NCBI GenBank assembly: GCA_010093995.1
Contig: ML992510.1
Span: 746,177-766,176, forward strand
Source: Elsinoe ampelina
Taxonomy: Eukaryota
Direction: 5' to 3'
DNA: 20,000 bases
The first letter of the stretch is position 1. Every line of letters begins with the position of its first letter. The position numbers were made by a program, and so were the translations under genes. The notes below the pieces were generated by a model that was not told where the DNA came from, ran no database searches, and was given only the letters and a program-made list of their open reading frames with translations. Of the stretch, positions 331 through 20,000 are shown one piece after another.

Positions 331-3300
331 TTATATGCTTTATAATCCGCGCCTTTAGTAACCTTTCTTAGCTACTCTTAGCTACAACTCGTATATAGTA
401 ATTAGCTCTCTTATATTTACGTAATTCTCTTTAGGTTCCTAGCTATTAAACTTAATAGGCTAGTCCTTCTACTTTACTAAGTAGAATACCTTACTCTTTA
501 TAGTTCTCTTACCTAGGATCTTCTCTACTATCTACTTATCTACTTTGTTAGCGAGAGATATACTCTCTTCTAGCTTCTCGCTAGCTCTACCTATCTATAG
601 TTTAAGAAGAGATATATAAAAGACATTATAGATGCAATAATAACTTAGTAAAGCTAGGCGATACGCCTACGATCTAATTATATTAAGTATACGAAATAGG
701 CTAAGGAATTATAGTTCTATCTTCTTCTTTAGTATAGGTAGCTATAAGTTCTTAGCTAAGAGTAGTACTAAGTTACCTACGCTATATACCCTTAGCGTAT
801 ACTTCCTATTATAGTACTTAGCCTAGTAGGTAGAAGCCTCTTTCTATTGCTCTACTAGCTTCGTATATATGTCTTGTAAGTGTTATACTAACTCCGCTAC
901 TACTAGTACTCTTCTCTCTAAAGTTTTATCCCGAGACTTAATAGCTATTACCTCTAACTCTAGGTAGTAGCTATATATTATTTAGAAGAGGCTTATACGT
1001 AGCGTAGTATAAATGCTATTATTACTTACAAATTCTACTTATAATAGATATTTAGCCTAGTCGTTCTATAGCTCTATATAGTAGCACCTTAGGTACTATT
1101 CTAATATCTAGTTTTACTACTTAGTTTAACTATCTATCTACGGGTAAAAGGCTATACTAAGCCTACGCTTTATATGCGTTTTATAACAGAATTTACTCTA
1201 GAACTAGCTAGTAAAGACCGATCCTTAATTACTTACTATTCCTCTTAGAACACTATAATAGTAAATAACATAGTTACGTAGGATCTCTACTAGCTCTATA
1301 GATATACACTTCTTAGTAGTAGAGATATATAGTAACATCTTAGTGTAATAGTCTATAATTACTAGTACTATATTATAGACGCTACTACCTTACTTACTTA
1401 GTAGTAGATTAGTAATAAAATCTATTATAATTTCTTACTATAGGCGGTCTAGTATTAGTAGCGTACGTAGCTTACTATAGGCGTAATAGTAGCGCGCCTT
1501 ATACTTCTAGTAAACTTAGTATAACTATACGTAGTTATTAATGTCTTTTCTTATAGTTGCCTAGAAGTACTTTTATAAGAGAAGTTTAAGCGTCTTATCC
1601 TTACTAAAGTAACTAGCCTATTCGCTATTATAGTATATATATAGTACCTACGCCTTAAGTGCGCTATTATTTAGAATAACTAGTAACTCTTTATAGAAGA
1701 GAAGATTATCTTATATATTCTATAGCGCTCTACTCTTGTCTCTACTACTCCCCGCTTACGAATATAGCTTTATAAACTTAGGGTCTTATCCTTATAGTAG
1801 CTCTACTACTAATATTAGGTTAGTAGATAGATCTTTAAAGAGATTCTCTCTCGTAGTTACTATAACTATAACTCGCTAGGTCGTTATAAGCCCCTAGGAG
1901 TTCTTAGAAGAGAAGTCGCTACTATATAGCGTATAGGCAGCCTAGGCCTATTCTAGGGCAGCCTCGTATATAGTGTAGATATGTCTAATAAGCGAGGTAG
2001 CTTCCTTAACATCGGTAGTTTAGTCCTATATACGAAGCTTATTCTAAAGGGTAGAAAGGAGATATAATACCTCTTACTCTTCTACTACGTAGTTAGAGTG
2101 CCTCGAGGGTATATTAGCTAGGTTCCTTATACCTAGCTAATACTCTATTATAAAGTTAAAAGTAGTAAGGAAGGTAGCCTAGTAAGCTTATTAGCTATTT
2201 AGCTATTTTAGCTTTATAAATCCTCGGAGATTATTATAGTTAGTAAGTACTTAAATTATATATATAGCACCTTCGAGGTAGTATTACTATTGCTTAAATA
2301 CATATATAATTACTAATAACTCTTAGTTGTATGTCTCGTAGTTATACTCTACTAGGATAAACTTCCTTAACTAAAAGGCTATAGGGTACTAAGTACTATT
2401 AAATAGTTAGGACAGAATTGCTACTACTATAAACTTTAATATATCGCTTTTAATATATAAGGGTAGCGTAGGATCGTAGTAGCGGAGGATAGAGGCACGT
2501 ATAAATATGTCTCTAATGTCCTTAAATGTCTACTATTTACTTATGCCCTATACGAAAGAGCTATACTTATAACTTTTAACTAAGCCTTTAAGGAGGCTAA
2601 AGAGGAGAGTAATAATCTTAGAGTAATACTATATAAAGTAGCAGTAGAAATTTATAAAGCTAGTAAACTACTAGACTTTATAATAACTCTTCGGCCTTAG
2701 TTAATCCTTAATTGTAGTTACTCTACTTAGATCTATTAAGACGCCTATAGTAGAGATAATATAGCTAAGGAATTCTATCTCCTTAGTAAAGAATTTATAT
2801 TTCTTAAGGCTAGTATATAAAGTAAACTTCTATAGCCTCGCTAGGATCTTATATATATAATATATATAGTTCTCTCTTAAGTTACTATAGATAAGAATAT
2901 TATTAAGGTAGACGATATAGATAGTATTAACTAGTCTACCTAGCGCTTTATTAATACACGCTTAGAAGGTAGCTAGGGCGTTAGTTAATCTAAAAGGTAT
3001 AACTAAATACTTAAAATAGCTATAGTACGTATAGAATGTAGTTTTCTACTTATCGCTACGCTTAATAGAGATCCTATAGTAGGTATTTTTTAGATCTAAC
3101 TTCGAGAACTACTAGGCTTACTTAAGCTAATTAAGTATCTCGCTAATAAGTAGAAGTAGGTAGTAATTCTTAATAGTTACCTCGTTTAAGCCTTAATAAT
3201 CTATATATAAGCCTAGACTACTATCTTTCTTAGGCACGAATAGGATAGAAATACTTACCTCGCTTATAGAGTGCCTAATTTACCTATTTAATTAAGTAGT

Positions 3301-4037
3301 CTCGAGATAGTCCTTAAGCACCTTAAGCTCCTTAACTAAGAGATTATATAAGGGCTAGAATAAAGGCCTCTTACCTAGCTCTAGCTTAATTACATACTCT
3401 ACGCCTAGTAGGCGTAGTAGATTTATAATATCCTTATAGATAAAGACGTTAAAGAACTCTACGAACTTTAATAGTAGAGCTAGGTCGCCTATAGCGTAAG
3501 TGTAGTCCTTAGATAGAGTCTATACTATAGCGTATATTCTCGGCTTATTCTTAAGGTCCTTTATAAAGTCTTCTAGTTCGCATAAGTAAACTATATATAA
3601 GAAGTAGCTATATAACTAGTTATCTATAGCGCTATCTATAATTATATACTATCTTCTCCGCTATAGGCGCTCTAAAATAACTAGAGGGCCTAGTCCTAAG
3701 TCTATAGCGTAGAAGAGGCCGATTGTCTCTCTAAGGTTACTATAGAAGTCTACTAGACGTACGTAAAGCTAGTATATACCGTAGTAGAATCCGGCTTACT
3801 CTATAAAGGAGAAGATACTTAAATACTAAGTATGCTTAACTCTTAGCAGATTATAACGAAGAGTAAATACCTAAGATATAAGATTAACTTCTATATAATT
3901 GTCTATAAGAAATATATAGTCTTCGTGCCCTATAGGTACTATAATAGCGCTGTAATAGGGTAGCGATAGATAAGCGTTAATTAGAAGAGAGAAAGGGCTT
4001 AGTTATACTCTTTAGCTAAGCCCTTAGAGTTTCCTAA
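331..4037 (-). pseudogene. pol: Gypsy-1 pol (PR-RT-RH-IN-chromodomain), RIP-inactivated
   Basis: Protease LIDNYIEVN (~LIDSCAEVN) 3883-3909. RT PFRLTNALATF then YLNN (YLDD) 2899-2910. RNase H ETYN*ELL and LTNYNNL ~2190-2455. HHCC zinc finger ~1510-1640. Integrase core SN*GSVFTS and AFYP*IDS*TK ~1120-1240. GPF domain ~600-730. Chromodomain YLVK*KD*P..FNS*EP ~420-490. Protease, RT and chromodomain share one frame. Confidence 0.93.
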
Positions 4038-6422: not shown

Positions 6423-9400
6423 ATACTCTAGCTATAGATCTTGCCTCCGTATAGCTAGGAGTATCTAAAGGAGGTCCGCTACTAAGCTAACTAAGGATAG
6501 ACATTTACCTTAGTTAGGAAGGTAGAGCTCTATCTACTAATTACGTAGCTATGTCTCTTATAGATTTAGAGGCTAATATTTATTTTATTAACTACTATTA
6601 CGTAAAGGAGAAAGAAGTTTACCTATGTACTAATAGTATAACGAGAGTAAAGTCCCTTAACTAGTATAAGATACACTTATATAGATACTACTATCTTATA
6701 GTAGAAGCTACTAACTACTATAGCGTTATAAAGGAAGTTTAATAGCACTTCGAGTCGGTAGAGATAAAGAGATATAACTTAGTACTAGGCTAGATATAGC
6801 TCTTTAGTATTAACCTAAACATCGATTAGTAAAGCTAGAGGTAGAGACATTACTCTACTAGCGTTAATATAACGCTCCTAATAGCGGAAGAATTTGCTAA
6901 GGAAATGTTAGAGTAGCTATAGTGCTATATAGTTTTCTTAAATATAATCTATAAAGATAATGCTTTAACGTTATAAAGTAGACTCCTAAGCTAGCTCTAT
7001 AACTTCTTAGATATATTCGATAATAAGGAAGCTATTACTATACTCTCTCTAGCGCTATATAACTACTTAATCGAACTTATTAAAGGGAAGTAACCTCTAT
7101 AGAGACCTATTTACGCCCTTGTAGAGACGGAGCTAAGTACTCTTAGAGAGTACCTAGCTAAGAATTTAAAGCTAGGCTATATTTGCTACTCTACTAGCCC
7201 TATAGAGGCTTTTATCCTCTTTATGCCTAAGGCTAATAAGTCGCTACGTCTCTACGTCGACTACTAAGGTCTTAATAACGTCTTAGTAAAGAACTACTAC
7301 TCTTTGCCCCTTATTACTAAGATACTCGATAGAATCTAGGGGGCTAAAGTATACTTAAAAATAGATCTAAGGGACGTATATTACTATATCTAGATTAAGG
7401 GGAGCGACGAATAGAAGATAGCGTTCCGATATAGATATAGACATTTTAAATACATAGTTATACCTTTTAGCCTTATAAACGCTCCTACTACCTTCTAGTT
7501 ATATATTAGCTAATACCTCGATAGCTTAGTTAATTACTACTATATCGTCTATATAGACGATATTCTTATCTACTCCTAAGATCTATCGTAGTACTATAGG
7601 CATATTAAAGAAGTTCTAGCGTAACTTAGAAAGTATCTTCTTTTTATAAAGGCTTCTAAGTACGCCTTTAAAGTTAAGAAAGTATAGTTTCTAGAATATA
7701 TTCTAGGCCCTAAGAGCGTCTCGATAAAGCTCTAGAGAGTTTAAGCTATCGTAGACTAGCTAGAACCTACTTCTCTAAAAGAACTCTAGATCTTTCTTAG
7801 ATTTATAAACTTTTACTAATAGTTTATTAATAGCTACGTAGAGATAATAAGACCTATAACGTAACTACTTATAGAGAGTAAAAATAGAAAATAGGTAGGT
7901 CCTTTCTACTTTACTAATAGTGCTAGGCAATTATTCTAACATCTTAAAGATTACTTTATAACTGCTTCCCTCCTATAGTTTTTTAATAAAAGTAAGAATA
8001 TAAGAATATATACTAACTCCTCTAGATTTGCTATCTCTAGAATTGCTATATAACTATTTAGCAACGGTAGAGAGAAGGCAGTCTAATAGTACTCTATTAT
8101 GTACTATTTACGGAAACTATAGAGAGTAGAGTTAAACTAGCTTACGTATAACTAAGAGCTACTTACTATCCTCGAGGTAGCGCGCTACTAGTAGTAGTAT
8201 CTCTTCTCTATTTCTTCTACTACTACTATGTTTATAGATTATAATAACCTAAAATACTTCTTAACAACTAAGACGCTCTTAGCTTAATAGGCCTATATTA
8301 GTAAAGAGCTATTATAATATAATATCTAGATTACCTATAACCTAGAGAAGCTTAATTCTACTAATAGACTATTAAGGAGGCTAGACCTAGATACTAGAGA
8401 TAAGTAAGCTAAGGTAGACTTACACCTATAGGTCCTAAGAGACTTATATAAGAGGCTAGAGAGACATCTTCTCCTTAACGCTATAATAGTAGCTAAGTAA
8501 GTTAAGTTAACCTAAGACATATAAGGTAAGATACTAGATATAAACTTAGTAGTTACCGAGGACTCCTTACCGAGATAGTATAGCGAGGTAGAGTATACTA
8601 GGAGATCTAAAGATACCTAAGAGAGTATTATAGCCTAAGGCGAGATACTAGACATAGATATAGAAGCTAAGATAGCTCTCTATAAGGGTAGAGATAGTAG
8701 GTCTACTCCCTTAGAGGTAAGTAGTTCCTTTTACTATTCCCCGTAGATAACTATAGTAGAGAAATTATAGAAAGATTATAGAGAACTTACTAGCTCTAGA
8801 CGTCTATATACAATAGCTACGAAAGAAGACAATACGTATAAAGAGGCATTACCGAGGCTACTTAGCCTAGTAAAGAGACTATAGCGGCGAGATACTATAG
8901 TAGAGATAATACTAAAGCGTCTTAGCGATCCTAAAGAAAAGGAGACTACTAAGAGAGAGAGCTAGAGATAGTAAAACAATAGCGTTCTACTATTCTAAGA
9001 TAAAGTCTTTATCCTAGCTATAAAAATACTAACTACGGAGATACTCTATAGAAATTATAATAATCTAATAGTAGGCTACCTCGGAATAGAAAAGATACTC
9101 TTCGTACTAAAGTAGAAGTACTATTAGAAGGGCATAACGATAGACGTTACTAGATACGTAAATTACTATAATAAGTGCTAAAGAATAAAGGTTCCTCGAT
9201 ATTAGCCCTATAGTAAAATATAGGCTCTAAGATTACCCCCTATTAGAGAAGTACTCTAGTATTAGTTAATAGACTTTATTACTAATTTACCTCTAGCGAA
9301 GGACTAATAGAGCTCCGTTACTAATTTAATTTTAGTACTAGTAGATAAAGTATCTAAATATATTAGATATATTCTAGTAAGAAAAGATATAGAGGCCCGA

Positions 9401-10369
9401 GAGTTAGCCGACATTATAGAGAAAGAGATCCTTAGTTACTATAGGTTCCTAAGAAGCTAGATTACTAATAGGGGTACTTTATTTAAGTCTAAATTTTAGA
9501 CGTTTCTCTACTAGAGATAGAAGGTCTAGAGATACCTCTTAATAGCGTTCTACCCTTAAACTAATAGCGCTATAGAGAGATAGAACTAGATAATCGAATA
9601 GTACCTAAGGGTGTTTATTAATTTCTACTAAGATAACTAGCTATACTAGCTATATTAGGCCGAGTTTGCCTATAATAGCTTCTATAGCGCGTCGCTAGGG
9701 GTAAGCCTACTCTACTATATTTATAGAATAGTTCTATATCTCCCTAATAATATTAAGGCTAACGCTATAGAGAAGAAGGTAGCTCTATAACTACTAGAAG
9801 CACTAGTAGTAGAAGTAAGAGTAAAGGCTCTATAAGACATAAGAGAAGAACTTAAGTAGTATAGGCTTAATGCTATTACGTAGTAGGAGGTATACTATAA
9901 TAAGAAGCACTAGCTAATAAGGTTTAAGAAAGGCTAAGAAGTTATACTAAGTACTAAGAACCTCTAGTCTCTCCGGCTAAAGAAGAAGCTAGTAGCGAAG
10001 TTTATAGGTCTATTTACCGTCGCTAAGACAGTAGGCTACTAAGTATACTAACTTAACCTTCTAGTATATATAAAATCGATCTACTTAATCTTTTACATAT
10101 CTCTCTTTAAGGCTTATTAACGAGGCAATAATATTACTCTACTACTAGTAGAGATTAAGAGGGAAGAAGAATACAAAGTTAAAGAGATAGTTAATAAGAG
10201 CCTTATTAGAGGTAAGACTTACTATAAGGTACTCTAGAAAGGCTATCCTAAAGAGGAAGCTAGCTAAGAGCTAATAGAGCATCTACGGAATACTATTAGC
10301 AAAATTAAGAACTTTAAAAAGAAAAGCCTTATTCTAAGCGTAATAGCGAAGTAACGCTATATTAAGTAA
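6413..10369 (+). pseudogene. pol: Gypsy-2 pol (PR-RT-RH-IN-chromodomain), RIP-inactivated
   Basis: Protease LIDLEAN (~LIDSGAD) ~6557-6577. RT YIDD 7550-7561. RNase H YTNSSRFAI ~8010 and IDYNNLKYF ~8235. HHCC ~9053-9181. IDFITNLP ~9269, ITNRGTLF ~9461, AFYP*TNSAIER*N ~9545-9586. KFIGLFT ~10000. Chromodomain EEEYKVKEI...YKVL*KGYPKEEAS*EL 10163-10290. Confidence 0.94.
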
Positions 10370-12891: not shown

Positions 12892-14909
12892 GTAAGGCTA
12901 TATAACTACTCTATCTTCGGGTACTTATAGACTAAAGCGCCGTCCTACTACTCTAGTATAGAGGCCTCTATTATTGTTATATTCTTTAAATAATCTAGCT
13001 ATCGGCTAAGAGCGTCTACTCTACTGTTCTTTAATCCCTTAATATAGTAGATCTAAAAGTTATAGCTTATAAGTGTTTCTAACTATCGAACCTATTATCT
13101 ATTAAGAACCTTAGTTATTATCTAATATAGAAGGTTCTTATAGTCGGTATAGACTTATACTAGTAAGGTTGTCTCTTCTAGGTATACTTTCTATTTATAG
13201 AATACTTCTATAATTATAAGTAGTTCCTTATTATATATATCGTAGTTAAGTTTAGGTCTAGTTATCTTTTGTAAGTAGTATACGATCGAGTAGTGTCGTT
13301 CCTTAGTATCTTTCTACGCTAGATACGCTTCTATTATAAAGTCTAAGGCATCTATTTCTAGTAGTACTTATCGGTCTAGATCGAAGAGTACTAGGATAAG
13401 TACTATTATAAGCCTAAGCTTTAGCTCCTTAAAGGCCTACCTATATCTCTTATTAAATATAAAGCTAGTCTCTTTCTTCGTAAGGTTAGATATTAGTATA
13501 ACTACTTTAGAGAATCCCTTAATAAACTTATAGTAGTAGTTAAAGAATCCTAGTAGTACTTAGACCTCCTTAACTATAGTAGGTTCTAGCTAGTTATTTA
13601 CTAATTTGATCTTCTTTAGATTAGGTCTAATACTATTAGTAGATATAATATAGTTTAGAAATTATATCTTATACTTATAGAACTTATACTTAGAGAGTTT
13701 TACTAGTAGGTCTTTCTCTTTTAGTTTCTATAGTACTTTATAAATATGTCCTATATGTTTATTATACATCTTTAAGAAGATAATAATATTATCTAAATAT
13801 ACTAAGATAAAGTTATTAAGGTATTCTTATAGAGTGTTATTAATTAACTCTTAGAAGGTTATAGAAGTATTAGTTAACCTAAAGAGTATAACGAGGTACT
13901 TATATAAACTCTATTACGTCCTAAAAGCCGTTTTCTACTCCTTACTCTCCTTTATTTATACTTAATAATAGACATCCCTAATATTAATTATAGTAAACTA
14001 TTTAGCTCTAAGTAGTTAGTCTTAAAGTTTATTAATCCTTAGTAGAGGATAGTAATTCTTCCTAGTAAGTATATTAAGTTTCTAGTAATTAATATATATT
14101 TATAATGTTTTATCTTTTTTAGGTGTAAAAAGCACTCTATATATAATAGGTAATTTTAATAGTTATATAAATCCTTTAAGTAAGTACTTATCGATATAGT
14201 TCTTAAGAATATTCTTCTCTTATTTCGATAGTAGTATAAGACCTTAATAGTGTATTAGAGATTTATTCTCTTCGAAAGGTATTTTGTAATTCTATAGTCT
14301 ATATTAGAGTAAGGCTATAATATCTTTCCTTTCTTTAAATAAGTTCTTAAAGTCTTTATATTCTAGCGAAAGTACTTAATCGCTTATACTAGTAATAGCC
14401 CTAACTATTAGTTATACCTATACTATCCTTATAGTTAGTATCTATAGAGCCGATTATACTCCCTATATCTTATAATTATACTTAGGAAATTCGAGTGTTT
14501 CTTTAATCTAATCTATGTCTAGATTATATTACTAAAGCTAGTCTATACTAAGTACTATATTATACTATATATCTACTATATCGATCGATTGTTTTTCTAT
14601 ATATGTTTCGATTTTAATTATAACATTTTGTAGTTCCTAAGTAACTTTCCTATTCTTTCTTATAGGGGTTCTATCTACTATAGTAAGTAGGTAAAGTAAC
14701 TCCTTCTAATGTTAATAAGGTTTAAGCTAATTAGTAACTATTATAGAGACGTAGCTATAGTTAGCTCCTAAGTCTATTATTACTCTTACCTTATTTCCTT
14801 ATATTTAGACTTCTAGTATAAAGTAATTTAATATATAGATCTTTATTATATTAAGGCTTTAGCTAGTATTATTGTCTTACCTTATTAGGTAATAACTAGC
14901 TAGTTTTTT
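12892..14909 (-). pseudogene. pol: Gypsy-3 pol (PR-RT-RH), truncated before integrase
   Basis: Protease IIDLGAN (~MIDSGAN) ~14760-14780. RT YLDN (YLDD) 13788-13799. RNase H end KGLKNSRVDALSR*LDY ~12990-13040. Confidence 0.92.
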
Positions 14910-16882
14910 ATTATTATAGCTCCTTAGATAAGTAGCTAATCCCTTCCTATACGTATCTACTATTAGTACTATATCTATTAGGCAAGTTATGTCTTATTAT
15001 TACTTAATATAGTAAGGTAAACTTCTAGCGCCTAAGTCCCTTAGTAACTATAAAGTCTAATAATTCTCTACTAGTTATACTAAGTAGTGTCGTATACCTA
15101 TATTAGTATAACTATTCCCTCTAGGTGTAGCTAGGCGTTAGTATTAAAGACGAAAGTAAGTTATATAGATTTATCTTATTATGTCCTATTCTAATAGTAG
15201 GTGTATATTATTATATAATTCCTCTATATCTCTATAAGGTATACTTTAAGTTGTTTGCCTAGTAGTAGTATATCGTTATTGTCGGATAAGTCCTTATCTA
15301 TGTTATTATACTATAGTTGTTTAGTATATTCCTTGTTATATTTCTCTTTATTACTACTACCCCTAGTATAGTTATAGTTAGTAAGGCTATACTAAGTATA
15401 CTCTCGTACTTAGCTATAGGGAATAGTACTACCTATCTCGATTACTAAGAAGTCTATAGTATATTTAAGACTAATAGTATCTTCTCTAAGTATATTATAT
15501 AAGTAGATAGTATAGTACTATTTGTAATTTAGATTTATATACTTCTAGAGCGATATATAATACACTTTTCCTTATAGTTTGCTATAAGGGCTAAAGGTAA
15601 GACTACTATATTATTATATAGTACTTACGTCCTAATACTTTGTCTTAATAATTGTATATTAGTAATTATTGCTAACTACCTTCTAAGGTTAGTTACTATT
15701 ACTACTAATTATAGAGAGCCTTTCTAGGTTAAGCTCCTAGTCTAGCTATTTTATTAGTTACCTACGCTTAGATAGCTTATATAGAAACTAACTAGATCCC
15801 TACTTGTCTAATAAATAAATATAATAAGAGTTATTATAATATACTATCTATAATAGCGTTATATATTAGCTTTGTTATTTACTATTCGTTATAGAGATAT
15901 TAAGTATAATATCTAGAGAGGATTCTCTTACCTCTCGAGTCGTTATAGACTTCTTCTATATTTCCTTACCTACGCTAAAGGTTATTAGGTCTTCTATAGT
16001 AGTATTAGCCTTTTTCTCTACTAGCCTAGTAACTATTATATATAATCTATTAGCTAGCGCCTCTTATCAGTAGTCCCTAGCCTAATACCTAGGTCTTTTA
16101 TACTTAAAATATAGATTATCTTATCTATACTTCTCTTTCTCTTTTCTACTAAGGAACTTTCTTCTATAGCTCTAGCCTTATACCTATAAGGGGCAACTTT
16201 CGCGTATAGCGTTAAGTTCTATAGAGTCTCTATAGTTTTAGGAGAAATACGTATATCTAGTATTTGCCTTATATCCTCTATAACGTTCTATACGTCGTTT
16301 GTAAAGTTAGTTATTAATAGTAATTATAGTATTTACTAGTTCTTAGAGGCTATTAGGTAGCTCGAGTATTATTTAGTCTTTAACTAAGTCGCTTAGTCCT
16401 TAGTAGAATACTAAATATTTAGCACTATTATTCTAATCTAGGTATATTACGAGTTGTTAGAACTAGAAATAGTACTAGGCTATAGACCTACGTTATTATA
16501 GTTATTAGATCTTTGTTATAGTAATGTATTTCTTATTAGATACGTTAAAGACTTACTTAATCTTCGCCTAGAAGATATTTAAGCTCTTAAAGATAGCCTT
16601 TATATCTAGGCTTAGTTATCTATCTAGGTAGCTACTTATATAAGGCTTAAACTACCTAAAGGTAGCGCCTTTAAGGTATATCCTAGTATAGAGGACCTTT
16701 ACTACGTCGTTAGCGTACTTATCCCCTTCTAGAGCAAAGAAGGCTTTAAGTTAAATAAGAAAGCGCCTTAAGTAGATATAGTTTCTATAGAAGAGTTCTA
16801 CCTCTAGCTTAGGCTTACTCTATCCTTCCCCTATACTAAGAGACCTTCTATATTTGCCTAAGGTTAAACTAGTAGTAGATAT
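14900..16882 (-). pseudogene. gag: Gypsy-3 gag with ~390-codon Cys/His-rich C-terminal extension (~660 codons)
   Basis: ELFYRN..YLRRFLI*LKAFF...KVLYTRIYLKGATFR*FKPY capsid segment, SIELNA (~PMELDA) ~16215, CCHC YFKYKRPRY*ARDY 16111-16070. The same frame continues to AAA AAC TAG at 14908-14900. Confidence 0.82.
14903..14909 (-). promoter_or_regulatory. -1 frameshift heptamer A AAA AAC before gag stop TAG
   Basis: In the gag frame, and the protease Asp codon (14774) is in the -1 frame. Confidence 0.8.
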
Positions 16883-16998
16883 ATTATTAATAGTAAGCTT
16901 TTCTAGCTTACTAGCGATTAAAGATACTAATAGTAACTTAAAGCAAGAGTTACTTATTAACCTTGTAGTATACTATACTATAGTAAAGGTAGTTAAAA

Positions 16999-17566
16999 TG
17001 TTATAAACCGTCTAAATATAGTCTATACTAGTAGTCTAAGCTAAGCTAAGAACGAGGTAGTTCTACTTCTATAGTAGTATAGCACTAAGGTAAGAGTTAG
17101 AGAAGGTATNNNNNNNNNNAATATAGTCTATACTAGTAGTCTAAGCTAAGCTAAGAACGAGGTAGTTCTACTTCTATAGTAGTATAGCACTAAGGTAAGA
17201 GTTAGAGAAGGTATATCTTATAGATAATAAAGTATAATTAGATAGTATTATAAAGGGCAGCCTTAGTAATACTAGTATTTACTATCTAGACAAGGTTAAC
17301 TACGGTACTTATATAAGGTAAGGACTATTTCTATATATATATACTTTAACCTACGTACTCTATATACTCTATACGCTCTATAGCGAGAGTTGTAATAAGT
17401 ATAGAGCGCTTAGCTATTCCTAACCCGCGCGCTCTATAGCTTTAGGGGTAGAGCTACTAGAGAAGATAGAGAACTAAGTAAATGTTAGGCTAGGTTACGT
17501 AATAACCTTAGTAGTTTAATTAGTCCTAACGTCCCTACGTTCTAGCTGTCCTACTAGTTCGTAACA
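16999..17566 (-). repeat. Gypsy-3 5' LTR (463 bp after removing gap artefact)
   Basis: Ends TGTTATAAAC...GTTCGTAACA (10-bp inverted repeat allowing RIP). Homologous to 18560-19022. Confidence 0.92.
17110..17119. other. Assembly gap flanked by an exact 95-bp overlap (17015-17109 = 17120-17214)
   Basis: Ten N. Removing the gap and one copy gives 463 bp, the length of the sister LTR. Confidence 0.93.
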
Positions 17567-18559: not shown

Positions 18560-19022
18560 TATTACGAACTATCTAAACATAGCCTACGCTAGTAGTCTAA
18601 GCTAAGCTAAGAACGAGGTAGTTCTACTTCTATAGTAGTATAGCACTAAGGTAAGAGTTAGAGAAGGTATGTCTTATAGATAATAAAGTACAATTAGATA
18701 GTATTATAAAGGCTAGCCTTAGTAATACTAGTGTTTGCTATCTAGACAAGGTTAACTATAGTACTTATATAAGGTAAGGACTATCCCTATATATATATGT
18801 TCTTTATTGTGTTCTTTATATACTCTATATACTCTATAGTAAGAGTCGGAAGTAACATAGAGTATATGTCTACTAGTAACCTATACGCTTTATAGTTTTA
18901 GAAGTAGAGCCGCTAGAGAAGATAGAGAACCGAGTAAATATTAGGCTAGGTTACGTAATAATCTTAGTAGCTTAATTAGTCCTAACGTCCCTATATTCTA
19001 GCTGTTCTACTAGTTTATAACA
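18560..19022 (-). repeat. Gypsy-4 3' LTR (463 bp)
   Basis: TATTACGAAC...GTTTATAACA, colinear with the Gypsy-3 LTR. Confidence 0.92.
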
Positions 19023-19037
19023 TTACTCTCCTTCTTT
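19023..19037 (-). other. Polypurine tract of Gypsy-4
   Basis: Minus strand AAAGAAGGAGAGTAA abuts the LTR TG. Confidence 0.8.
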
Positions 19038-19096
19038 AATCGAGTTGTCCTAATAAGTAAGTATTCTTCCTTGCCTTTATACGCTATATACTAAAC

Positions 19097-19645
19097 ATGT
19101 CTCCTAGTTATTAAAGGCATAGTAAATCTAGTATATCTATATAAAAGAATCTCTTAGAGTTTATTAAACTATTTAGAACTAATATGCTATAGGCTTATTC
19201 TTGTTACAAATTAAAGAGACTAGACTATAAGGTCTATATTTAGTTAGGTATCTATAGCTAGTATATCGTAAGTAACTACTTAGGTTATAATATTTAAGTA
19301 ACAAAATTAGAATAGTAGCGTCTCTAGTCTAAGTATATTTACTTATAAAAGGAATTAGTTATAGCTAAGGCTACTAGAAATAAAGCTAAAGAGGCTTATA
19401 AAAAGGCAAAAGAGGCTCGTTAGAGAGCTATAGATAATAAGCTTTAGCTCTATAAGGAGATATAAAAGTTAGAGGACAAGGCGGAGAAAGTAATCTTTCT
19501 AAAGGAGACTTGTATTTAAGTCTTAAAGTAGAAGAAAATACTATTATTAGTAGATCTCGTCCTTCTATAGAATTAGTAATTGTTTATGCCTAACTCTAAT
19601 TAGAGTTCTTTATTTAGTAACGATTAAGGTACTTCTATTACCTAA
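19097..19645 (+). pseudogene. Antisense cargo ORF D: Zn2Cys6-like cluster plus coiled coil (end approximate)
   Basis: Intact AAC ATG TCT at 19097. Tyr spacing x2-x6-x8-x2-x7 at 19196-19288, followed by an Ala/Glu/Lys-rich helix (KELVIAKATRNKAKEAYKKAKEAR...KLEDKAEK). Confidence 0.75.
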
Positions 19646-20000
19646 GCGATCTTCCTTAGGCATTCTCGTTTTTGTTTAGTGTTAGGAGTGCTAGGTCTAT
19701 CTAGTCGATTTACTTAGGATAGGTTTTCGATCTAGTAATCTAGAATTACTTACGAGGTAAGGTACTTCTCTAGTTCCTATATTACTTCGCTATACTAATG
19801 TCCCTTCTAGTGAATAAGATAGTAGTGTTTTTCTTTTATAAGTTTATAATGTAACACCCTTTCTATCTTATACCGTAGCTCCTATGTTTCTTTATCTAGT
19901 TCGATAGGTCTAGGTATAGTATTCTATAGTACTTTCTCTAGTAGTAATATATAAAAGACTAGATAGATCCTTATATATCTTAGTAGTTCTAGTTTATATA
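19640..20000 (-). pseudogene. pol: Gypsy-4 pol C-terminus (integrase GPY/F region and chromodomain)
   Basis: YKLELLRYIRIYLVFYILLLEK (~YKLELP.HMRIHPVFHVSLLEK) ~19930-19998 and YKIERVL...YYLIH*KGH*YSEVI*ELEKYL ~19757-19875. Confidence 0.9.

Follow-up and report, generated by a model that had tools for sequence, protein, structure and literature searches.

Introduction

Accessory genes on the antisense strand have been described in several groups of long terminal repeat (LTR) retrotransposons, and here we compare them with a degraded frame at 19097-19645 in a 20-kb stretch of DNA from the fungus Elsinoe ampelina (contig ML992510.1, positions 746,177 to 766,176; this whole stretch of 20,000 nucleotides is called the window below). 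The frame lies antisense beside the pol gene of the fourth Gypsy element in the window (Gypsy-4), and it very probably represents a conserved antisense accessory gene of an ascomycete lineage of chromodomain Ty3/Gypsy elements, in a copy that repeat-induced point mutation (RIP) has destroyed. Its closest precedent among fungal genes is brtn of the Boty element, reportedly described by Zhao et al. (2011, Virology 417:248). In the descriptions given by citing papers, brtn is an additional gene of a fungal chromodomain Gypsy, placed antisense in the interval from pol to the 3' LTR; it occurs in most Boty copies and in Botrytis and Sclerotinia, and has no function assigned (PMC8365987, PMC7264820, PMC4227169). 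The antisense open reading frame (aORF) of the window has the same antisense position between pol and the 3' LTR as is described there (PMC7264820, PMC4227169). This likeness concerns position, and the citing descriptions speak of neither a zinc cluster nor a coiled coil. The text supplements of PMC8365987 contain no mention of brtn, "additional ORF", or "antisense", and the family of intact proteins described below includes no Botrytis or Sclerotinia member among the matches listed (120 of at least 147).

Plant Gypsy elements (Grande, RIRE2, Retand, and PvRetro13) also possess antisense ORFs between pol and the 3' LTR, for which the part of PMC7264820 that treats them proposes regulatory roles; position, orientation, and conservation within families are as in the elements studied here. 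The plant carriers are members of the non-chromovirus Tat/Retand lineages, some of their ORFs contain PMD or transposase-28 domains (PMC4408406), and the descriptions consulted in these two sources report no zinc cluster (PMC7264820, PMC4408406). In a class II transposon of Zymoseptoria tritici, the accessory genes REP9-1 and REP9-2 encode the domain DUF3716, the function of which is given as not known in the relevant section of PMC8232023. Our literature search, which left most subscription journals outside its reach, listed no match for a zinc-cluster protein encoded by a fungal LTR retrotransposon. We know of no function that has been assigned to the accessory antisense ORFs described so far, whether brtn of Boty or those of several plant elements.

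The nearest analogue in layout comes from a retrovirus. HBZ of human T-cell leukemia virus type 1 (HTLV-1) is an antisense-encoded basic leucine zipper (bZIP) factor expressed from the 3' LTR, and its promoter and functions are known from experiments. HBZ and the product considered here are comparable as small (~200 amino acids), transcription factor-like coiled-coil proteins that are encoded antisense beside the 3' LTR of a reverse-transcribing element, whereas they differ in domain type (bZIP versus zinc cluster), share no kinship of sequence or fold, and belong to a human retrovirus and a fungal retrotransposon, respectively. That a fungal Gypsy can have an antisense gene in the interval from pol to the 3' LTR is already known; what appears to be new is the assignment of a fold, the extent of the family in number and distribution, and the recognition of its members with RIP taken into account.

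Results

A relic of an antisense gene in Gypsy-4

The window consists of fungal DNA ruined by RIP. Its GC content is 0.25-0.36 throughout, and in every 1-kb bin the RIP indices TpA/ApT and (CpA+TpG)/(ApC+GpT) are 1.65-2.58 and 0.07-0.25, respectively. Four Gypsy elements are represented by pieces, and the features of the last of them are as follows.

Right-hand end of the window, minus strand: pol of the fourth Gypsy element (Gypsy-4), the carrier of the antisense gene
18562-19022, minus strand: 3' LTR of Gypsy-4 (461 nt, repeat match), with the edge ...ATAACA at 19022
19023-19037, minus strand: polypurine tract (PPT), reading ttactctccttcttt on the plus strand and abutting the LTR edge
19097-19645, plus strand: RIP-degraded antisense gene (aORF) of 183 codons with 21 stops, recognized by homology to intact proteins
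19196-19288, plus strand: relic of a six-cysteine cluster with Zn2Cys6 spacing, TAT/TAC codons aligning to conserved Cys
19301-19531, plus strand: relic of a long helix or coiled-coil segment rich in K, E, and A (profile positions ~75-151)
19580-19609, plus strand: relic of the C-terminal motif, LFMPNSNxSS compared to LALSPxTWSA in the alignment with intact relatives
19753-19998, minus strand: C-terminus of pol, cut by the edge of the window, with the last part of the integrase SH3 domain and the chromodomain, found with a profile of relatives

The LTR edge at 19022 resembles the edge ...GTAACA of intact relatives, and the PPT complement ttactctccttcttt stands where all 31 related loci (see below) have CTATCCCCCTTYC, with C-to-T changes accounting for the differences. 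When the C-termini of 15 intact pol sequences were made into a profile, the minus-strand frame from 19998 matched its positions 89-170 of 195 (29.3 bits, E 1.6e-10), and because about 25 profile positions are left past 19753, the end of pol was placed near 19680. Pfam gave no match in this RIPed pol end. The ~600 nt between the 3' LTR/PPT and the end of pol carry no assignment other than the frame at 19097-19645, which is convergent and tail-to-tail with the chromodomain end of the minus-strand pol.

The original prediction, made from the sequence alone, described in this place an intact ATG 75 bp inside the 3' LTR boundary, six TAY codons with the spacing C-x2-C-x6-C-x8-C-x2-C-x7-C, and a long charged helix, all within an open frame ending about where pol ends. 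Apart from the openness of the frame, every feature so described is present where stated. The ATG at 19097 is 75 nt from the LTR edge, the frame reads MSPSY(stop)RHSK..., and the TAY codons are at 19196, 19205, 19226, 19253, 19262, and 19286 (spacing x2, x6, x8, x2, x7). A K/E/A-rich segment follows at ~19301-19531, matching a long helix in intact relatives, and the frame terminates at 19645, near the estimated end of pol. The frame is not open, however: it contains 21 TAA/TAG codons among 183, and an uninterrupted frame of ~190-215 codons is absent. Stop density in the frame is not below that of its neighbors (23 and 15 per 150 codons, as against 5-10 in the pol frames).

A frame of this kind might have arisen by chance and never have been a gene, since tyrosine codons are common in TA-rich RIPed DNA and purine-rich runs read as K/E helices. 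Over the six frames of the window, Tyr accounts for 9.2% of the codons and stops for 10.9%; the general form of the zinc-cluster spacing, with Cys or Tyr allowed, occurs nine times and the exact spacing once. Together with the undiminished number of stops and the silence of Pfam, which found nothing in the read-through frame, these counts favor a chance pattern, and the Tyr spacing by itself is not significant. It is homology alone that makes the frame significant. A scoring in which Tyr is treated as Cys was rejected as a method because this substitution would put the answer into the sequence, and given the homology it was unnecessary.

When the read-through frame (stops replaced by X) was compared with 1.84 billion representative sequences in a filter-free HMMER search, three matches were obtained. 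All are intact proteins, of 199, 208, and 211 amino acids (E 7.4e-11, 3.9e-5, and 1.5e-4, respectively), and they align with query residues 11-145. Each possesses the pattern C-x2-C-x6-C-x8-C-x2-C-x6..8-C followed by VTxxEW and then a long helix, and the six Tyr of the window align exactly with the six Cys of these proteins. Profile searches widened the family to 26 and then to at least 147 proteins of ~190-215 amino acids. In the opposite direction, a family profile built from 27 members matched the window at 19112-19531 (59.4 bits, E 1.2e-19, profile positions 12-151 of 201) and gave no match in the other five frames of the window or in its other three Gypsy copies; likewise, tblastn and blastn detected no second copy of the antisense region in the window. 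Because the profile is silent after the pol of the copies at 601-3399 and 7013-10327, the accessory gene is, within the window, specific to one Gypsy lineage.

We examined the origin of the differences between the window and its relatives in the 72 alignment columns that are conserved at 70% or more. The window residue is identical in 31 columns, is derivable by C>T/G>A changes alone in 30, and is unexplained in 11. Among the RIP-derivable columns are those of every one of the six Cys (TGY>TAY), of the His (CAY>TAY), and of the Trp (TGG>TAG), together with three Arg that became stops. The conserved His of the family aligns with TAT at 19235, so that the window encodes Tyr at all seven conserved Cys/His positions and now has neither Cys nor His there; each of the seven codons is a single RIP-type transition (TGY>TAY or CAY>TAY) away from a Cys or His codon. 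Farther downstream, TAG at 19601 occupies the position of the conserved Trp. Homologous proteins, the profile match, the RIP-explained columns, and the alignment of the C-terminal motif lead us to regard the frame as a gene copy killed by RIP and not as a product of chance. A chance origin is refuted by the alignment of intact proteins, by a profile match confined to the aORF frame, and by a position relative to LTR, PPT, and pol that recurs in 27 intact or near-intact loci, and we put its likelihood next to nil. The window copy of the gene is a dead fossil that cannot make protein and is without present function.

A family of intact relatives

Intact members of the family have a basic N-terminus, a short helix, a cluster of six Cys and one His, a helix of ~85 residues, and an acidic/aromatic tail (LxLSPxTW...DDFW). 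The original prediction would have been undermined by intact members lacking the six cysteines or an open frame; the intact members have both, with the same Cys spacing, and the prediction withstands this check. In sets of 27 and 131 sequences this spacing is x2, x6, x8, x2, x6-8. The six Cys, the His, and many other positions are at least 90% conserved among the 131 sequences, which also show almost no variation in the motif L-x-L-S-P-x-T-W. Conservation extends to the basic residues that follow Cys2 (CRR), and many members have a basic, KRK-type N-terminus.

Almost all of the members are unnamed predictions from metagenomes or run assemblies. Names are available, among the matches listed, for proteins from Hortaea werneckii, Sporormia fimetaria, and Lithohypha guttulata, which are entered as "hypothetical protein". 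Two of these bear the automatic UniRef label "Zn(2)-C6 fungal-type domain-containing protein", and in the ESM Atlas the nearest clusters are from Ascomycota, all annotated as "hypothetical protein". Some members carry automatic JGI names that are clearly spurious ("galactokinase", "multidrug efflux pump subunit AcrA"). By longest contig, the members appear to fall mostly into two groups, one near 1-1.5 kb and one near 6-7 kb; the second of these values is also the length of the element unit.

The antisense gene in related elements

The genomic setting of the gene was determined for 31 loci from metagenome contigs, representing about 23 distinct elements. At 27 of the 31, the aORF on the plus strand is followed by pol on the minus strand, i.e., the gene is antisense and situated between the pol stop and the PPT/3' LTR, in agreement with the suggestion of the original prediction that it is encoded by the element. 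Two of the remaining contigs are too short to tell, and two (L007 and L008) have gag without pol. Pfam identified RVT_1, RNase H, integrase, and Chromo in the pol ORFs, with Chromo present on 18 of the convergent ORFs. The edge ...ACA followed by CTATCCCCC... is common to all 31 loci. The first in-frame ATG is 45-114 nt from the LTR edge in 20 loci with an intact ORF, a range that includes the 75 nt of the window, and the ends of aORF and pol vary from 12 nt apart to an overlap of 182 nt.

L007:5111-6621 and L008:9989-11499 are one element in two assemblies. Its antisense gene has one internal stop, and a minus-strand gag directly follows this gene with no pol between them; the element looks like a derivative from which pol was deleted while gag and the accessory gene were retained.

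A fragment of a host zinc-cluster gene beside a Gypsy insertion, or a host gene captured once, could conceivably account for such a frame, given that Zn2Cys6 genes are generally known to be very numerous in ascomycete genomes. This explanation is contradicted by the occurrence of the gene at the same place, between PPT and pol stop, in 27 of 31 loci whose elements diverge by up to ~65% at the protein level. Moreover, a unit of 6.1-6.9 kb that holds only the LTR, gag, pol, and the antisense gene is present in several contigs, either circularly permuted or with its pair of LTRs, and no longer relatives of the protein were found (385-2000 amino acids; weak evidence). A host origin of this sort is, in our estimate, hardly credible.

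The aORF is open in 22 of the 31 loci, with amino-acid identities to family member P0002 of 32-100%; low-GC, RIP-like copies are among the nine that are broken. In member P0025, Cys is replaced by Tyr at three positions. The comparison of L018 with L029, the only pair with unsaturated synonymous divergence (dS), yielded a nonsynonymous divergence (dN) of 0.045 and a dS of 0.462, and the ratio of 0.10 points to purifying selection on the antisense gene in this one pair. Most of the gene is outside pol, and thus the constraint is not borrowed from pol. The antisense gene is a regular part of the element, conserved and selected.

An inverted repeat beside the PPT, and the antisense RNA

Loci L001-L031 contain, immediately following the PPT complement and at 16-22 nt from the LTR edge, an inverted repeat of 5-9 bp with a TCC(T/C) loop (e.g., L012:257-273, L013:2682-2698, and L018:4633-4650). 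Examples are AGCTTCG-tcc-CGAAGCT, GGTTCCG-tcc-CGGAACC, AGCGCTG-tcct-CAGCGCT, and CTTGCG-tcct-CGCAAG. The mean stem is 7.2 bp in 23 non-redundant loci compared to 4.3 bp in 4600 shuffles. Fifteen different 5' arms among the 23 loci point to covariation of the stem, and the wobbles on the aORF strand comprise five G.T and no A.C. These stems were paired by a loop-anchored comparison; MAFFT with RNAalifold misaligned them and gave 0 pairs. The repeat is in the leader of the aORF or, seen in the genomic RNA, just 5' of the PPT, and it might act as a hairpin in RNA or as a palindrome recognized by a protein. The window retains a relic at ~19037-19060 in which the pairing has been lost.

The antisense RNA could itself be the functional product, with the reading frame being incidental; it might, for instance, give double-stranded RNA by pairing with the pol 3' end or regulate the priming of the plus strand. 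Convergence of aORF and pol, the ends of which are close or overlapping, and a conserved hairpin in the leader beside the PPT fit this explanation, and antisense transcription is itself listed among the possible roles of such ORFs in the relevant part of PMC7264820. An incidental frame is at odds with its being open in most loci at widely differing identities, with the conservation of six Cys, the His, and many other positions across the 131 sequences, with the dN/dS of the one informative pair, and with the location of most of the ORF outside pol, where conservation is not borrowed. We regard RNA as the sole product as very unlikely.

Predicted structure of the product

The Zn2Cys6 consensus is C-x2-C-x6-C-x5..12-C-x2-C-x6..8-C, and the spacing of the family fits it. 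Domains of this type consist of a pair of short helix-strand units folded about two zinc ions, and their DNA sites are typically repeats that contain CGG. The known Gal4-type factors (Gal4, Ppr1, Put3, Leu3, Hap1, Lac9, AlcR, and Pho7; PF00172) and the family have in common the pattern C-x2-C-x6-C-x8-C-x2-C-x6..8-C, basic residues that follow Cys2, and, past the cluster, a linker and then a long helix. The CRR residues are at the position where Gal4-type proteins contact DNA. An AlphaFold2 model of P0002 based on the 27-sequence alignment has a mean pLDDT (predicted local distance difference test score) of 81.7. A helix at residues 17-31 precedes a small Cys domain, in which a CxxC marks the start of each of two short helices (40-45 and 59-63). 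A single long helix follows at 75-158, most of it with pLDDT 93-98. In a Foldseek search of the PDB, the top ~24 rows were all Zn2Cys6 DNA-binding domains (E 0.58-6), including those of Pho7, Ppr1, Leu3, Gal4, Hap1, Put3, AlcR, Lac9, and Cep3. The predicted cluster superposes on such domains at 1.8-2.5 A over 33-39 residues; with VIA-align 2 we obtained 35 residues at 1.8 A for Leu3, 33/33 at 1.9 A for Lac9, and 39 residues at 2.5 A for Hap1 (Z 2-3.4).

We modeled a homodimer of residues 30-165 with four zinc ions, which scored 0.50, compared to 0.00 for the best of three controls; among proteins of solved structure, 21 of 30 pairs and 0 of 23 single chains attained this mark. The runs have at least 83% of their contacts in common, the pLDDT of the partner is at least 77, and the long helix forms the interface. 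These models predict a zinc-cluster domain on a long, self-pairing helix. In our reading, the tail (DDFW, PWV) resembles activation domains in its acidic and aromatic composition.

Several observations weigh against a Gal4-like regulator. No member of the 27- or 131-sequence set reached any Pfam gathering score. Zn_clus (PF00172) was detected at E<=1 in 16 of 27 (best 0.0071) and at E<=0.1 in 9 of 131 (best 0.012), the scores seen being 9.7 and 12.1 bits against a cut-off of 21. DUF3716 (PF12511) scored better (E<=1 in 10 of 27, best 8.4e-5; E<=0.1 in 7 of 131), also below its cut-off of 22 bits (P0003, 17.2 bits; P0009, 19.5 bits, E 0.00097). When PDB sequences were searched with the family profile, no zinc-cluster chain appeared at E<=10, only coiled-coil noise at E >=0.11. 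The fold scores are all weak, with Foldseek E >=0.58 and Z values that are common by chance. Gal4-type domains usually have Pro before Cys4 and no conserved His in the cluster, whereas the family has a conserved His inside the cluster, after Cys3, and SG before Cys4. The dimer model is antiparallel over ~70 residues (contacts 88-130, 95-123, and 109-109), which holds the clusters far apart, unlike the Gal4-type arrangement, and the passing of the homodimer mark by eukaryotic proteins may stem from the method's memory. As a further difference from the known Gal4-type factors, the family protein, at ~200 amino acids, is without the fungal-specific regulatory middle domain and is encoded by a retrotransposon and not by the host. 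The evidence from the loci has its own limits, because these are partly redundant and the unsaturated dS comes from a single pair. Two suggestions of the original prediction are supported within limits: for a Zn2Cys6-like domain, the spacing and predicted fold agree but the Zn_clus cut-off is not reached and the structural scores are low; for a dimerization coiled coil, the model predicts a pairing helix but in an orientation not seen in Gal4.

As a side observation, DUF3716 is the best Pfam model for some members (P0009, P0003, and others), always sub-threshold.

Proposed role of the product

We propose, at what we judge to be even chances, that the product would be a nuclear, dimeric, zinc-dependent DNA-binding regulator of the element itself. 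Its mRNA would begin either within the U3 portion of the 3' LTR or in a short leader, because the ATG is only 45-114 nt from the LTR, and would cross the PPT; the transcript would be convergent with pol and would often overlap its 3' end. The protein would enter the nucleus, as the basic KRK-type N-terminus of many members suggests, and would bind DNA as a dimer. A candidate target is the LTR of the element or the palindrome adjacent to the PPT, where binding may tune transcription of the element. Zinc binding, DNA binding, target, promoter, and direction of regulation are all inferred. The full proposal, i.e., that a widespread ascomycete LTR retrotransposon lineage encodes its own sequence-specific dimeric zinc-cluster regulator, antisense and from the 3' LTR, which acts on the LTR or palindrome, is possible but somewhat doubtful.

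Alternatively, the gene may be a real, element-borne gene for a zinc-stabilized adaptor or structural protein built on a small cysteine knot common with Zn2Cys6, and not for a DNA-binding regulator. Such a protein might interact with Gag or integrase, direct integration to its targets, counteract silencing, or belong to a larger DUF3716-like group of transposon accessories. Zn_clus is sub-threshold in every member while DUF3716 scores better, and the part of PMC8232023 that deals with the Zymoseptoria class II transposon places DUF3716 in its accessory genes. The likeness is that of a cysteine-rich fungal domain in transposon accessory genes (PMC8232023), and it differs in that the family match is sub-threshold (19.5 versus 22 bits) and the transposon class is another. 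An adaptor would also be consistent with the extra conserved His, the missing Pro, and the antiparallel arrangement of the modeled dimer, and, as weak evidence, with the failure to find a relative of 385-2000 amino acids that would link the family to classical factors with a regulatory domain. Other features speak for DNA binding: the only structures resembling the cluster are Zn2Cys6 DNA-binding domains, aligned over the whole domain at 1.8-2.5 A; the CRR residues after Cys2 are conserved; and the order of cluster, linker, and long helix is that of Gal4-type proteins. We consider an adaptor possible, short of probable.

Other Gypsy copies in the window

Besides Gypsy-4, the window contains the following Gypsy features.

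601-3399, minus strand: Gypsy pol match 1, with the pol C-terminus at 42.4 bits (relatives' profile)
7013-10327, plus strand: Gypsy copy with pol match 2 (7013-10321) and the pol C-terminus at 59.9 bits (relatives' profile)
12954-14372, minus strand: truncated reverse transcriptase (RT)/RNase H remnant of a Gypsy (pol match)
17011-17566, minus strand: second LTR copy (repeat match), with an N gap at 17111-17120

The copies at 601-3399 and 7013-10327 are both RIPed chromodomain Gypsy elements. The 3' LTR of Gypsy-4 is 86% identical to the second LTR copy over 449 nt (18576-19022 compared to 17120-17566), and 18572-18670 is 96% identical to 17011-17109. No PPT was found after the copy at 17011-17566. 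This copy may be the 5' LTR of a truncated minus-strand Gypsy with its RT at 14372-12954, and the element so delimited (12954-17566) may be a sister copy in the Gypsy-4 family from which the integrase end and the antisense gene have been lost. Inside the second LTR copy, the run of 10 N at 17111-17120 is flanked by a duplicate of 105-109 nt (17001-17109 = 17106-17214, 90%), most likely an assembly-gap artifact and not a true tandem repeat.

Discussion

The pol end and the aORF frame of Gypsy-4 were recovered only with profiles from intact relatives, Pfam being silent on both. For annotation, this means that such genes are recognizable even in copies ruined by RIP, since the signatures that RIP is expected to leave are Cys>Tyr, His>Tyr, Trp>stop, and Arg/Gln>stop. 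For one antisense ORF in this part of a fungal Gypsy, there is now a family of at least 147 proteins, a fixed position in the element, evidence of purifying selection, and the hypothesis of a Gal4-like cluster carried by a long dimeric helix. The resemblance to DUF3716 suggests that cysteine-cluster proteins encoded by fungal transposons may form a larger group.

The prevailing view is that LTR retrotransposons depend on host transcription factors. If the proposed role is correct, elements of this lineage would carry their own regulator, with a bearing on copy-number control or on escape from silencing in fungi, and retroviral regulators such as HBZ or Tas would have in this gene a counterpart from a fungal retrotransposon. 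The gene might also serve as a source of a compact DNA-binding module. The family, so far unannotated and with none of its at least 147 members at a Pfam cut-off, may then tie Gal4-type clusters to the transposon-associated DUF3716.

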